Positions 13,176 through 63,367 of a stretch of 64,000 nucleotides of DNA are shown piece by piece. The position numbers were made by a program, and so were the translations under genes. The stretch comes from Eledone cirrhosa (taxonomy: Eukaryota). The stretch is from assembly GCA_964016885.1 (NCBI GenBank), contig OZ024742.1:76942001-77006000 (forward strand). Reading direction: 5' to 3'. The notes beneath the pieces were generated by a model. It was given only the letters and a program-made list of their open reading frames with translations. It was not told the origin of the DNA and made no database searches. Numbering within the stretch: the first letter of the stretch is position 1; every line of letters starts with the position of its first letter.

Positions 13176-14229
13176 TATGATGAACTAACTGTTGTGTAAC
13201 AACTTCTACCTAACTCGTCCCATGGACTGAGTTCTCTACCACTACGGATATTACCTTCCAGTGTTCTACCTCTCTCTCTCTCTCTCTCTCTATATATATA
13301 TATATATATATATATATATATATATATGTATATATACATTTTTATACGAGCGACTTGAAATTTCTCGAATGTTTTTCAAACTGTAGAATCGTTGACCATC
13401 CCTTTTTCAATAATAGTGTATAAGTGAACCTCATAAATATAAATGTTCATTGTTTTTGTACAAGTGTTCTTATAATACTGCATCATAAATTAGTTGCAAC
13501 CGCTGAGTGAAATAAAGGAAATCATGTCACGGAAACTCCGGCAAATCCTTTTAATAATCTTTCACGGAAATACTAAAGTTTAGGAAGGGTCGACATTAGC
13601 TATGTTACTTTTAACTGGGTGATTGGTACCATTATTATTTTAGAATCCATTTTCATGGGTAATTATAACATTTTAAATGTAGTTCGTAGATTTAGTCACA
13701 ACTCCGTGATAAAATTAATTCATTTTATAATAAAACATGATTAATTGTGTGTGTTAATTAAAACAAATATATATAAAACATAGCAAAGGTTTCCAAAAAA
13801 TTTAAATAAGTTCGTAAAGGAAAAAGCACGATGAAATAGTTAAAATAGAATCTAAGTGAAAATTTATCATTAACAAACTGTTGAAGGAAGAAAATATACG
13901 CTACAGTGGATATTCAAATTACAGCCTTCAGATATCAATAAATTGCAAAGGAATTAACACAAATGTTTGTATCCTTTCGTCGTTTCTACTTGTTATGCGC
14001 CATAAACTTTACATTTGTTACGTTGCAAATGGTATTTGTATTCGACACAAATATTGTCCGCTTCAATGCATTATTATTAAATTGGAATTTAACTACGTTG
14101 CCTCTCTTCTACATATGATACACTTTTCTTGATATTCTGTTACAGAACGTCTAAATATTCAGGGAACAGCCATAATTATAACAGTGTTGTTGATAAATTG
14201 AAAGTTAAAAGAAGAAATATATAGTATTG

Positions 14230-14460
14230 AATTAATACAAAGAGACAGTGAGAGATAGAGTTGTTAAGAGTGTGAAGTGTGAAGGATGATGTTTGCGAGG
14301 AATTGAGAATGTGATAGAGGTTGGGGAAAAGAGTGGGGAATCAAGGAAAACAGAAAACGTTTATTCTGAATGTGTAGGAGATATTTAATGCGGGGTATCA
14401 AAGGAAAAGCTGGAAAGCATTAACGAGTAAAGGAAATGATGTACGGGGTATGAAATACTC
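14230..14460 (-). mobile_element. Possible LINE 3' fragment
   Basis: Minus strand reads YFIPRTS, resembling the F.PRT..WN.LP C-terminus of CR1/Jockey-group LINEs; heavily degraded. Confidence 0.3.
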
Positions 14461-15528
14461 GCCTACATAACCACCGGTTATATTGTTGCTTGTCGTCAAA
14501 AGTTCATTTGTGTCAATTTATTTCAGAAACATGAAATTTAAATAGAATTTTACGATGGAGATCTTGATTGCCCATCGCATTATTTGACTTCCAAAAGTAT
14601 CCTTTGTCTGGCGAGGATAATATAAAATTAATTTCTGCATTAACATGTCCTTGAGGTGATAGTGCTATCAAGGCATTCTAGAAATGGGTTCTTATAATGT
14701 TCGCAGAATGGGCATCGTATCTTTGGGTTAAGCAATTAACAATTAATTATTTTAGCCTCTCAATGTAAAACAGGAACATGTTGCAGAATGAGCCATATTG
14801 CCTTCGGAAATTTCTATAATCGAACGATTCTAAGAATCTGAAGATAAGTTACAATTGTTCTATAATTTAAATGCATGGTGTGTCATTAATTACAAGCGTA
14901 CAATTAAAGTGGTCTCAAATACTTGAACGAAATTATTAATGTAGTTATTTATAACAAATCTTATCTCATATTGAGTATTAAATATTCAAATAGGAAATAT
15001 GTATTTAATGCTTAAATGTTACATTATGTTCAGCATTAATATTGCAAAAAGTTTGATACTGATTAAACTGATAGAAATGCATTTGAATATAAATGATTTA
15101 CGTTCCAGAAAGTTAAGGCTTATAAAGATCTCTCGGATAATAAAACTCTTAGTATACACATTAATGTTTCCGAAGTACTGGATGACTCATAGGCAACGTT
15201 TATATAAGCAGCTGTCATGGTTCTTATAGAGCGGTTCGTTTTATAACTTAATTCACAATCTCTTAGAAAAATAGAGTATGATCCCATCCACAAACTACAC
15301 GTTACATTATGCATGTTTATTCCAGTAGCGATAGGAAGCACACTAAGAAAGGATGGATAAAGTCGTTTAACGAAACTCTGTTTGAATATATTTGCAAGTG
15401 AAATGATTATTTTCGAAATTTAAATCAATTTAACCGTAACTCAATTTGAACTTAGAGCAGGAAGGATTTTAATATATAAAATTGGCAATTTAGGGGCAAT
15501 AGCTGCATATCTAGATCTAAATACACTC

Positions 15529-15655
15529 CTATATATATATATATATATATATATATATATATATATATATATATATATATATATATATATATATATATAT
15601 ATATATATATATATATATATATATATATATATATATATATATATATATATATATA
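15529..15655. repeat. (TA)n microsatellite
   Basis: Directly visible. Confidence 0.98.
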
Positions 15656-15813
15656 GAAGCGGTAATACAACAGTTAGTTCACAATACCGAAAACAATTAT
15701 TCTCTCCCTTTCTCTCTCTCTCTCTCTCTCTCTCTCTGTATATATATATATATATATATATATATATATATATATATATATATATATATATATATATATA
15801 TATGATATATATA

Positions 15814-15985
15814 AGATTCTACAGTACTAGAACTGTTTCATTCTTTAGAAATAATCAGAATTCTAAAGAATGAAACAGTTCTAGTCCTTTAGAATCTGAT
15901 CTATATTAAAACTGTTATACTCTGCTATGTATTGAGTACCTTACTTACTGTCGTTACCTCCGATTCAACCCGGAATAACTTACTA
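15814..15985 (+). mobile_element. Palindromic PLE mini-remnant with tail
   Basis: Arms 15814-15850 and 15861-15897 contain a GAAACAGTTCTA HHR half; tail hairpin at 15918-15938. A related fragment lies at ~47681-47700. Confidence 0.7.
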
Positions 15986-16187
15986 TATACACACACACAC
16001 AAACACACACACACACACACACATATATATATATATATATATATATATATATATATATATATATATATATATATAATCTAAGTGTGTAGAAAGTAAACAC
16101 ATGGAGCAAAACAAACGATCCAGTACATTGAAGTTATATGTTAGTTTTACGCCATATATATACATATATATATATATATATATATAT

Positions 16188-16373
16188 CCTTCGCTATATG
16201 TCTCTCCACCACTCCCCTACACACCCTTTGAACTCTCTTCCCACACACTTTTCACCCGAGGAAGGGCTTATGCCCGAAACGTCGTTCCCCACCACCACCC
16301 CACTCTCCAGAGCGTGAAATTAATAAACATTCGCTGTACTGCCGCTCTGTTTTGTTCCTGTTCAAATTTTCCA
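16188..16373 (+). mobile_element. PLE 3'-end remnant with HHR-like motif
   Basis: CCGAGGA A GGGC-TTAT-GCCC GAAA CGTCG TT at 16256-16286 with AATAAA downstream, flanked by (TA)n. Stem I is poor. Confidence 0.65.
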
Positions 16374-60894: not shown

Positions 60895-60904
60895 CACCAT
60901 CAAC

Positions 60905-61345
60905 AACAGCCAGAGTCGGTGATTGAGTGGAATTGTTATGGGATTTCAGGATATAGACAGAAAATAGAACACAATAAGCTTGGAGTGGTGGTTTTTAATA
61001 TGCAAAACAGATCGTGGCTGATTGTAAGTGTAGCTTGCCCTTTGACATGAGAGTGCTAGAAAAGGAGAACATTAACCGATACCAGGATTTAAAGTGAGAA
61101 TTAAAAGTTATTTGGTACTGTCATCATATCAAGGTCGTCCTGATGTGCATAGTACCACTAGTTACTATTTGGAAGAGTTTTCAAGGATGGTTAAAGAACA
61201 TTAATCCAGCCTCGTATTTTGGATCACTTTAAAAGACATGCTTGCTGGGAAGACCAAGAACCATCCAATACCTCCTGAATATCTGAGGCTGCAGGTAGCG
61301 GCTTGATGTTCATTTGAACAAACATTCCAGCTAAATAACATCAAC
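60905..61345 (+). mobile_element. R4/Dong-like LINE 3' fragment (restriction-like endonuclease)
   Basis: LLWDFRI*T..IEHNK..VV...IVSVACP.D..V.EKE...RYQDLK*EL..IW...VV, matching the PD-D-K RLE region; degraded. Confidence 0.7.
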
Positions 61346-61840
61346 GACTGTGACTCCAAGAAAATAATATATATACACACACACAAACATACACACACAC
61401 ACACACACACACACACACACACACACACATATATATATATATATATATATATATATATATATATATATATATATATATATATATCAATGAAAAGTGAATT
61501 AGTTGATTTGTGATCAAGTAATCCTATATATAACCGATGCCAAGCACACAATGGTATAAATATATATATATTTAACGATCGTTAAATAATGAACTTTTTT
61601 TGTTTAATATAAGGAACTGTTTCATTGTTTTATTCATTATTTTTTAAATATTTTATCTTGACTCTGTATTCCGTTTATCTTTCACTGAAAGTGATTTTTG
61701 AATGCATCTCTTCTTTCCATGATATCCGGATTACAGTGAGTTCTTCATACGGATTGGACACTACCGTAAACTTTTGGTAGATTTATCTACATATATATAT
61801 ATATATATATATATATATATATATATATATATATATATAT

Positions 61841-62248
61841 GTAGAAGTTATATTTAATTTGTTGGGATACAACAAGCAAATATTTTTATAACTGATATAA
61901 AGCACTCAACAAGTTATTGGAATAAAAAATACAATATATTAACAAATGGAAACTATATTTATAAAACCATATTTATTTCATTATACATATTTCAAGGACA
62001 CCAAAGCAAATTATGGTGCGCTTTCATCAGATAAAATATGATATCGATCATGTCGGTTGGAAGGTCCGGGAGCTTCCAACCGACATGATCGCATTCTTTA
62101 AGGGTATGTCAATATTTGTTTATAAAACTGATCTATATCATATTTTATCTGATGAAAGCGCACCATAATTTGCGTTGGTGTCCTTGAAATAGGTATAATG
62201 AAATAAATATGGTTTTATAAATATAGTTTCCACTTGTTAATATATTGT
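61841..62248 (-). mobile_element. Palindromic PLE mini-element (two HHR arms, tail, junction hairpin)
   Basis: ~61932-62049 is the reverse complement of ~62129-62248. Tail 61841-61931; 19 bp hairpin at 62045-62091. Confidence 0.85.
62141..62205 (+). ncRNA. Type I hammerhead ribozyme (second copy 61972-62040, minus)
   Basis: Stem I TATTTTAT/ATGAAATA, CTGATGA, stem II GCACCA/TGGTGT, GAAA TAGGTA TA. Confidence 0.75.
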
Positions 62249-63097
62249 ATATATATATATATATAAATATATATATACAATATGTATATATATATATATA
62301 TTATATATATATATATATATATATATATATATATATATATATATATATATATATATATATATATATATATATATATATATATATATATATATATATATAT
62401 ATATATATATATACATATAGAATTCACAAGAATCAAAGCTATGTTCAAAACATTTATTCACTTACAATGGTTTCATCCAAACCTAGGCTTGGAGTCTTCG
62501 GACCATTTTTTAATGCTTGTACATATAATTGACCTCCTATCCAACGCAAGAGACATACAGATATATATATATATATTGATGTACAGTGGAGCGACATATA
62601 TCTACTACATTTGTATAGTAATTCAAATTTAAAATAAAAATTAAAATAAGGCTTCTTCTCGATGCGAAAATGGTGGTGGATGTGAAAACTATAACTTTCT
62701 TTTTCTTTTTCTGCACACATACTAATTTGATCTATACAAACAATATCGTCCCACTACAACCACCATAATACTCTTGCTTACACGCTTAAAGTGCTTGTAT
62801 TACATGTAATACCTTGCCACACAATACTCTTATATAAATGAGACACACGTGCATGCTCTATATATGACTAACGCATACACTATCTACTAGAACTGATTAT
62901 TGGACTATTCTCTTGCATTATCTGTGTTATCTACCGCATATATTTTGATTTTGATTTTGATTTCAAATTTGAATTACTATACAAATGTAGTATAGTATAA
63001 TATATGACGCTCCACTGTACATCAATATATATGTATATGTATCTGTATGTCTCTTGCGTTGGATAGGAGGTCAATTATCTGTACAACCATTAAACAA

Positions 63098-63144
63098 TAC
63101 TCCGAAGACACCAAGCCTAGGTTTGGATGAAACAATTGTAAGTG
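63098..63144 (+). ncRNA. Type I hammerhead ribozyme, CCGAAGA core (second copy 62459-62503, minus)
   Basis: TACT CCGAAGA..CCAAGC/GTTTGG..GAAA CAATTG TA AGTG, then AATAAA. Confidence 0.75.
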
Positions 63145-63367
63145 AATAAATGTTTTGAACATAGCTTTGATTCTTGTGAATTCTATATAACTGCTCTGTA
63201 GAACAACTGATATTCTTACATTGAGCTATTTATCTTACTGGTAATAATGTAGTAACAAATTACTGACCTTCCCTGTTTATAGTTTAAAATATACATAACT
63301 CTAAATAATATCCTTAATATTATTAACTGCTCCATACTCTTCAGCTGACATACTTTAAATTACCAGT

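Follow-up and report, generated by a model that had tools for sequence, protein, structure and literature searches.

The window analysed here, a stretch of 64,000 nucleotides from Eledone cirrhosa (contig OZ024742.1, positions 76,942,001 to 77,006,000), belongs to a 3.0-Gb genome and is crowded with Penelope-like elements (PLEs) that sit in (TA)n tracts. In PLEs of the Hydra clade we found a small hairpin downstream of the hammerhead ribozyme, which combines a base of four pairs, a 2-nt bulge on the 3' side, a variable inner stem and the 3' flank ACT. The hairpin is duplicated, with one copy at the start of the tail (HP1) and a second one before the open reading frame (ORF; HP2). The two ends at which element copies stop lie at short offsets 5' of one copy each, next to a TAT/ATA patch, and inverted insertions pair a long with a short end. 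Comparison of the sequences suggests that each hairpin copy probably docks the reverse transcriptase (RT) of the element and sets the start of copying.

According to the main text of Craig et al. (2021, PMC8557442), the Hydra clade consists of PLEs with a C-terminal endonuclease (EN+), a pseudo-long terminal repeat (pLTR), a hammerhead, a tail and an inverted, 5'-truncated arm. The choice of start sites in PLEs and the occurrence of tailed and tail-less mirror arms have been an open question since the tail was first described. The sole biochemical study found two start sites, not the RNA signal behind them, for which the hairpin is a clade-wide candidate.

Conservation and covariation of the hairpin

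All eleven hairpin strings cited in the earlier note, which was drawn from the letters of the window, are present, and their positions are right within 1-2 nt. The distance from the hammerhead cut to the hairpin is 42 nt (13213), 35 nt (15919), 58 nt (23184), 50 nt (40343), 57 nt (41605), 58 nt (61923), 52 nt (63193) and 82 nt (57213 and 60335); a complete hammerhead core was not found in the window copies at 34187 and 50624. The sequences at 57212 and 60334, previously taken for a minimal form of the hairpin, have an A-C mismatch in the outer pair and fail to make the drawn fold; they represent a degenerate HP1 that retains the 3' strand.

Outside the window, the genome was sampled with 140 evenly spaced 10-kb stretches (1.4 Mb), in which a hammerhead descriptor blind to the hairpin retrieved 156 matches from 38 families (reversed control, 2). 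We defined a strict fold as RCTC, a stem of at least 3 pairs, a 1-2-nt 3' bulge and GAGY, starting 25-90 nt past the cut in a tail of at least 85 nt. This fold is present in 12 of the 26 tail-bearing families, compared with a mean of 0.1 and a maximum of 2 in 300 dinucleotide shuffles, which amounts to a positional enrichment. Further controls gave 1/26 for the reverse complement, 0/24 for the upstream sequence and 2/26 for a bulge on the 5' side. Six further families have variant folds (GTTC/GAAC and ACTC/GAGA twice each, TCTC/GAGC, ACTC/GAGC), and no hairpin was found in the remaining tail-bearing sample families F0, F2, F3, F7, F24, F25, F30 and F37. When all 256 tetramers were ranked as base stem, ACTC (8/26) stood below TTTT (10) and equal to TAAT (8); it is not singled out because AU-rich stems with G-U pairs form readily. 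A loose descriptor free of position, with hundreds of matches in the window, was of no use and was dropped.

Homologous proteins (36 of 66) were aligned and then used to retrieve loci outside this genome, namely 78 metagenome loci, drawn from the 80 best among 451 matches, with a further 13 coming from genome bins. We infer that these 91 loci are animal DNA within the respective assemblies; no relatives were found in viral contigs. The 91 loci contain 90 hammerheads at the end or start of an ORF, which fall into 59 families. Based on two short motifs only, HP1 follows the ribozyme in 48 of the 59 families, and another descriptor gave 49. The 11 families without HP1 are mostly represented by short-ended copies or contig ends; one is rearranged, and L257 exhibits neither the signature nor a clear end. 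These ORF-linked counts replaced an earlier count of 21/36 (reverse complement 5, mirror 6, shuffles mean 1.1, maximum 4), which was dropped on account of false hammerheads and short-ended representatives.

The inner stem of the outside HP1 covaries. With a bulge of 2 nt, its first pair forms in register in 46 of the 48 families (T-A in 26, C-G in 20; 34.8 in column shuffles), compared with 2, 1 and 4 of 48 at bulges of 0, 1 and 3 nt. The second pair forms in 40/48 (shuffles 23.5) and the third in 34/45 (19.0), and a pair-counting tool led to the same outcome on 46 of the sequences. The switch between T-A and C-G is clustered on a quick RT tree of the outside relatives and needs four changes, three of which are forced by strong branches. 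Double changes are also found in the base stem, i.e. GTTC/GAAC in this genome and GCAC/GTGC and TCTC/GAGA in outside loci. The invariant core is YTC/GAR or CAC/GTG with the 3' flank RCT, and the outer pair is loose. The bulge had been described as 1-2 nt on the 3' side; its side is confirmed, but its length is nearly always 2 nt, and it reads TT (32), TC (10) or TA (5) apart from a single CT (n = 48), followed by the flank ACT in the outside HP1.

A covariance model from 46 outside HP1 finds seven of the nine full window hairpins as well as HP2, with weak scores among 14 window matches at E up to 10, and misses those at 13213 and 61904. A search of Rfam 15 at its gathering score gave no match in the window, in line with the earlier note, to which no description of the hairpin was known.

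It is extremely unlikely that the hairpins are chance folds in AT-rich sequence, or were plainly inherited from a recent ancestor without having a function. The hundreds of window sites that match a loose descriptor and the lack of significance of most individual folding z-scores would be expected under this explanation, but the positional enrichment and the repeated compensatory changes contradict it, as does the retention of the hairpin among carriers whose proteins are ~35-50% identical and whose neighbouring DNA is unlike.

Two side observations concern the hairpin sequence. The 3' strand and its flank occur as GAGCACT, GAGTGCT, GAGCGCT and GAGTACT, a near-palindromic series that could reflect CpG decay of GAGCGCT; in this genome G tends to follow GAGT, and A tends to follow GAGC. 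In one outside lineage (L267, L268, L284, L295) a small additional hairpin, ACTC/GAGT or GCTC/GAGT, precedes HP1, ~15-35 nt past the cut and within the part that is kept by short ends.

A second copy and the two element ends

In copies that read through the tail, the same hairpin occurs again 55-118 nt past HP1 (start to start), just ahead of the ORF. The earlier note did not see this second copy, and the duplication is a new finding of the present study. HP2 is present in 21 of the 22 outside families that read through as far as the beginning of the ORF (in L322 the 3' strand alone is clear) and in four families of this genome, represented by 40343, 57302-57319, 63193 (11 other copies) and an ORF-less unit of 522 bp. 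The published Hydra-1_Ajap consensus also shows it, by eye, at its 5' end. HP2 is never part of an ended copy, since the long end falls shortly before it.

Two sharp ends are seen in each family. The short end lies 0-8.5 nt 5' of HP1 (18 family medians) and the long end 0-6 nt 5' of HP2 (eight families), both with a mode of 4; three of 11 long-end rows were excluded, with an apparent HP2 in a microsatellite flank or in a hairpin-less family, and in three families the long end was defined by the reference copy. The distance from the cut to HP1 is variable across families (31-81 nt). Counted copy by copy, in the 40343 family 16/25 short ends are located at -4 and 14/22 long ends at -6, in the 13213 family 19/19 short ends fall between -2 and -12 from HP1, and in the ORF-less unit 12/13 short and 10/10 long ends are found at exactly -4. 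A search of sequencing runs listed no RNA run as a carrier of the sequence. In contigs of two runs, of unrecorded kind and possibly the source of the assembly, loose ends in (TA)n fall at these two places as well. A correlation with r 0.97 was not relied on, given the bounded definition of the short end and some mis-called hairpins.

The trimers TAT/ATA are located at -9 to -3 of 39/48 HP1 (15, 7 and 7 in windows further 5') and of 19/31 HP2 (6, 6 and 4). One alternative is that the ends are set by TA microhomology alone and the hairpins serve the regulation of translation or transcription of the downstream ORF, with the protein acting on its own 5' leader. HP2 ends 5-42 nt ahead of the first ATG in 30/31 outside families, and the A+T content is 89% in the junction zone vs 67% in the tail. 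However, other TAT/ATA trimers of the tails do not serve as ends, the short ends of the 13213 family lie at HP1 (19/19) without any TAT/ATA within 32 nt 5' of it, and the ORF-less element retains both hairpins and both offsets. Leader regulation in place of start-site setting is accordingly very unlikely; an additional regulatory role besides the setting of start sites is possible.

The arrangement of the arms follows a strict rule. Among inverted insertions with outward-facing tails, all 60 pairs with both ends classed combine a long and a short end (55 + 5), 23 further pairs (19 + 4) with an unclassed or read-through member having been left out; in loci that were not chosen by a tail query the figure is 16/16. 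The rule suggests that a single event uses both sites, on opposite strands of the target, i.e. a programmed twin priming.

The proposed start-site function can be worded as a sequence of steps. Each hairpin of the sense RNA would be bound by the Hydra-clade protein, the nicked end of the (TA)n target would anneal to the UAU/AUA patch, and synthesis would begin ~4 nt 5' of the stem and proceed away from the hairpin, which would therefore never be copied from its own start site. A start at HP1 would generate the short end and a start at HP2 the long end, so that the tail would consist of HP1 and the linker between the two start sites. One particle with two active sites would use both start sites at once on the two target strands, and this coupled step would result in a head-to-head insertion, one arm of which has the tail while the other lacks it. 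The chances that the two sites are coupled in one event are about even. We propose more tentatively, at slightly less than an even chance, the complete scenario in which tandem ~25-nt hairpins program twin priming by a telomerase-like RT particle with two active sites, one for each strand of a (TA)n break, each hairpin holding one active site ~4 nt from its point of start.

The earlier note had offered two interpretations of the hairpin. The first, a cis signal for the protein of the element, remains likely for this hairpin, which is conserved and covarying and opens the tail just past the short end. The second, a signal for second-strand priming or nicking, is less favoured, since the duplication of the signal and the position of both ends a few bases 5' of a copy point to the start of the first strand.

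A rather unlikely alternative is that the hairpin represents an RNA-processing signal, where the transcript is cut by a host or element nuclease a few bases 5' of every copy, leaving free 3' ends at which the RT starts. Under processing, fixed offsets would likewise be expected and the inserted copy would lose the hairpin in the same way, but processing does not on its own explain the pairing of long and short ends in 60/60 insertions, and according to the text of Frangieh et al. (2024, PMC11167929) initiation in an anole element is internal on unprocessed RNA.

This anole element, PAc of the Poseidon clade, is the closest biochemical precedent for start sites that are set by the hairpin. In vitro, its RT begins copying at two sites inside the RNA, one at each border of the tail; RNA located 3' of the starts is needed, ribozyme cleavage is not, the protein is modelled as a dimer, and a protein-binding motif near the starts is hypothesised, not defined (text of PMC11167929). 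The likeness comprises the position downstream of the hammerhead, the two starts bounding the tail and the requirement for 3' RNA. The two starts of PAc are known biochemically, whereas the elements studied here document two sharp genomic ends; the text of the PAc paper gives no conservation analysis, duplicated signal or long-plus-short rule.

Several observations weigh against hairpin-directed start sites. The AC-rich stem loop of PAc is described as containing the starts, whereas the ends in our elements lie 5' of a hairpin that is not AC-rich, and the PAc template shows, by eye, neither GCUC..YY-GAGCACU nor such a duplicated signature. Single hairpins are marginal: among those of the window only 13212 has a clear folding z-score (-2.8), and the drawn fold is the minimum-energy fold in 5/11 folded stretches. 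HP1 is degenerate in the 57213 family. The outer pair of the base reads GCTC/GAGC in 47/48 families outside this genome, and this high conservation leaves little covariation signal in the base; all counts are moreover inflated by related families. HP2 mostly has one C-G pair above the bulge, its second pair forming in 14/31 vs 13.3 in shuffles, and the HP2 counts leave out the families of 13213, 61904 and F6, for which no read-through copy was obtained. The offsets are maximal matches that include chance or microhomology letters, and the short ends of the 61904 family are divided between -5 and -12. Finally, inner-stem G-U and A-C pairs, which would reveal the strand that folds, number 11 to 6 (p 0.33).

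As the G-U test leaves the strand unfixed, the hairpin might also act in DNA, on the cDNA or an unwound strand and maybe with an antisense template, as a cut site at which the GIY-YIG endonuclease resolves a transposition intermediate. The 3' strand and its flank form the near-palindrome GAGYRCT, Craig et al. ascribe the tail to endonuclease-mediated resolution (main text of PMC8557442), the text of Frangieh et al. cites a tail requirement for the D. virilis endonuclease, and antisense templates are discussed in the text of Arkhipova et al. (2013, PMC3846280). The covariation of the inner stem nevertheless requires a folded single strand, a TAT/ATA patch at the junction suits the annealing of a primer, and the location of HP2 outside the inserted sequence of ended copies means that action on a DNA site would need a longer precursor. 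We regard a DNA site as unlikely compared with an RNA signal that positions the RT.

The latter makes a geometric prediction, with each start at the hairpin minus ~4 nt and one hairpin per end, and how the PLE tail and inverted arm arise can now be tested directly. If the twin-priming scenario is true, it would explain the tail and the inverted pLTR of PLEs in one step, the twin hairpin would be the tag that mobilises Hydra-dependent retrozymes, and it would provide a portable signal for target-primed synthesis from a chosen internal point of an RNA.

Known systems and the clade limits of the hairpin

Structured RNAs that position an RT at a set distance include the 3' stem-loops of long interspersed elements (LINEs), the 3' untranslated region of R2, hepadnavirus epsilon and the template-flanking elements of telomerase, and twin priming of L1 yields inverted insertions. 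The system proposed here would differ in that two tandem copies program both RNA-internal priming sites and in that synthesis from a start site leaves its own signal uncopied. PLE RTs and telomerase are sister groups, and the fixed distance from an RNA anchor to a short patch for primer alignment bears on the origin of telomerase-type template positioning. As a practical use, the motif delimits elements and places ORF-less partners in the Hydra clade.

The earlier note had placed the hairpin in otherwise unrelated families. This is not the case: every carrier that could be tied to an ORF belongs to the Hydra clade, throughout whose examined elements the hairpin is common, and two window families with another linker (4625-5653, 26278-28286) lack it. 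The marks of the Hydra clade (RWK, DKT, CxCx5C, no CCHH; Craig et al. 2021) are present in most window ORFs. RWK near the N-terminus is seen as RIRWKT in the ORF 57318-59540 and as RVRWRT in 63359-64000, the remaining window ORFs being 5'-truncated, and the change of DKG to DKT is documented by ADKTS in 57318-59540, with DKA in the ORF at 63359. Carrier elements have the CxCx5C linker, a GIY-YIG endonuclease at the C-terminus that lacks the CCHH motif, a canonical hammerhead in the pLTR and an insertion into (TA)n; a Pfam search of their ORFs gave no matches at E 0.01. Tandem copies of the 40343 family are spaced ~3.9 kb, outside units ~2.4-2.8 kb, and a length of <3 kb is given as typical, not defining, for the clade in the main text of PMC8557442.

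Among the eight hairpin-less families of the genome sample, F3 is the only one linked to an ORF, which is not of the Hydra type, and the family of window 26278-28286 is among the eight; two ORF-linked negatives are thus the basis for a restriction to the Hydra clade. The window ORFs with the other type of linker, Cx2-5CxxC, are 4625-5653 and 27678-28286. The PLE at 26278-28750 has a hammerhead cut near 28525 and two sharp ends ~62 nt apart. In the family of 4625-6370 the hammerhead core is apparently decayed or variant in 15/15 loci, and between its two ends lie an internal (AT)n and ~30 nt. F2 and F7 (L031:7472-7600, minus strand; L071:6099-6250, plus strand) are abundant hammerhead elements that lack the RCTC hairpin and have a strongly covarying terminal hairpin just before their end; they are probably partners of another PLE clade with a signal of its own. 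F0 (L081:250-3350, L086:8780-9750) consists of tandem 310-bp units, each with a hammerhead, and is retrozyme-like without this hairpin.

One carrier is an ORF-less partner element. Its tandem unit of 522 bp, with a longest stop-free frame of 95 aa, contains a type I hammerhead and both hairpins, and appears to fit the class of non-LTR retrozymes, i.e. tandem hammerhead repeats that lack an ORF and stem from PLEs (Cervera and De la Pena 2020, PMC7229834; Li et al. 2026, 10.64898/2026.07.22.740005). The available text of these two papers does not name a cis signal for mobilisation, and the word "hairpin" has no match in either.

Signatures of the hairpin can be retraced in published consensus sequences. 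By eye, it is clear in three of six Hydra consensus sequences of Craig et al. (Amil-2, both copies of Ajap-1, Ajap-2), which represent one coral and two sea-cucumber families, and nearly so in one copepod family (Crog); the other two (Amil-1, Obim) stop at the short end and have none. The tail is given as 30-40 bp in PMC8557442, compared with 55-118 nt between the two hairpin starts in our study, and the word "hairpin" is absent from its main text. In the opening text of Cervera and De la Pena (2014, PMC4209133) no hairpin is mentioned either. Across the literature searched, with subscription papers (e.g. Arkhipova 2006, Pyatkov 2004), Repbase notes, figure images and the bioRxiv supplement outside its scope, there is no account of the hairpin, its duplication or the pairing rule. 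In the PAc template, as given in PMC11167929, GCC...GAAAG occurs by eye twice, 34 nt apart (the tail length) and 5' of the start region, with a UCUC/GAGA stem ~8 nt 3' of the motif; Poseidon elements may use a different duplicated signal.

Carriers in the window

The hairpins of the window belong to elements of different completeness. A complete one is the inverted insertion of one Hydra-clade family at 34647-40424, whose minus arm has a short end at ~34650 and whose plus arm, with the ORF 37092-38981, a hammerhead core at 40238 and a cut before 40293, has its long end at 40424. HP1 of this plus arm is located at 40343-40367 (plus strand; ACTC/GAGT, TA bulge). The short ends of the family lie mostly 4 nt 5' of the hairpin, and HP2 is visible in read-through copies (L003, L020), 4-6 nt past the long end.

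Both regions upstream and downstream of the protein can be compared in the near full-length Hydra-clade copy that carries a degenerate HP1 in its 5' read-through region (57213-57223, plus strand). Just ahead of the ORF follows HP2 (57302-57319, plus strand; TCTC-CTATACAG-TT-GAGC), which sits 3 nt past the position at which the element's own 3' copy stops. The ORF for RT and endonuclease (57318-59540, plus strand) has the RWK, DKT and CxCx5C motifs and a frameshift near its end, and the 3' tail contains the degenerate HP1 at 60335-60345 (plus strand) and, ahead of a (TA)n tract, the long end at ~60417. A second read-through region is found at the right border of the window, where HP1 at 63193-63226 (plus strand; GCTC/GAGC, TT bulge) follows a hammerhead core at 63102 with a cut before 63141. 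The Hydra-clade ORF of this element starts near 63371 and its inverted short arm stops near 62415. HP2 is decayed in the window copy (63329-63346, plus strand), and at this position GCTC-C...G-TT-GAGY is intact or a one-letter variant in 11/11 other copies of the family.

HP1 at 13213-13232 (plus strand; ACTC/GAGT, a 1-nt bulge as drawn) belongs to a Hydra-clade family, with the core at 13141, the cut before 13171 and a long end at ~13269; a Hydra-type endonuclease is located upstream at 12530-12967 and in 11/56 copies. The hairpin at 34142-34187 (minus strand) has a long inner stem and a long end at ~34104, and is linked to a Hydra-type endonuclease in 1/42 copies (L071). HP1 at 50624-50647 (plus strand; ACTC/GAGT, TT bulge) is part of a short fold-back insertion with a long end at ~50695. 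It is the top match of the model that was built solely from outside loci, and ends like that of 50624 follow Hydra-type endonuclease matches in L086 and L090 by eye.

HP1 of the short fold-back insertion at 15919-15937 (plus strand), a covariance-model match, has an ORF link in 0/28 copies. The same holds for 0/99 copies of the family of HP1 at 23184-23204 (plus strand; core 23081, cut before 23126, long end ~23264) and for 0/2 copies of that at 41584-41605 (minus strand; GCTC/GAGC, TT bulge, core 41700, long end ~41513). The 23184 family is akin to that of HP1 at 61904-61923 (minus strand), which reads ATTC in place of the ACTC of most relatives and has its core at 62030 and its long end at ~61841; the partner short arm of this element on the plus strand stops near 62247.

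Ends of different PLE families are located back to back in each other's (TA)n tracts and form nested clusters (23265-23600, 50088-50420 and many sampled loci). At 43657-44715 (plus strand) two neighbouring open frames, the second of which has no Pfam match, resemble pieces of one protein of the DNA-transposon type.

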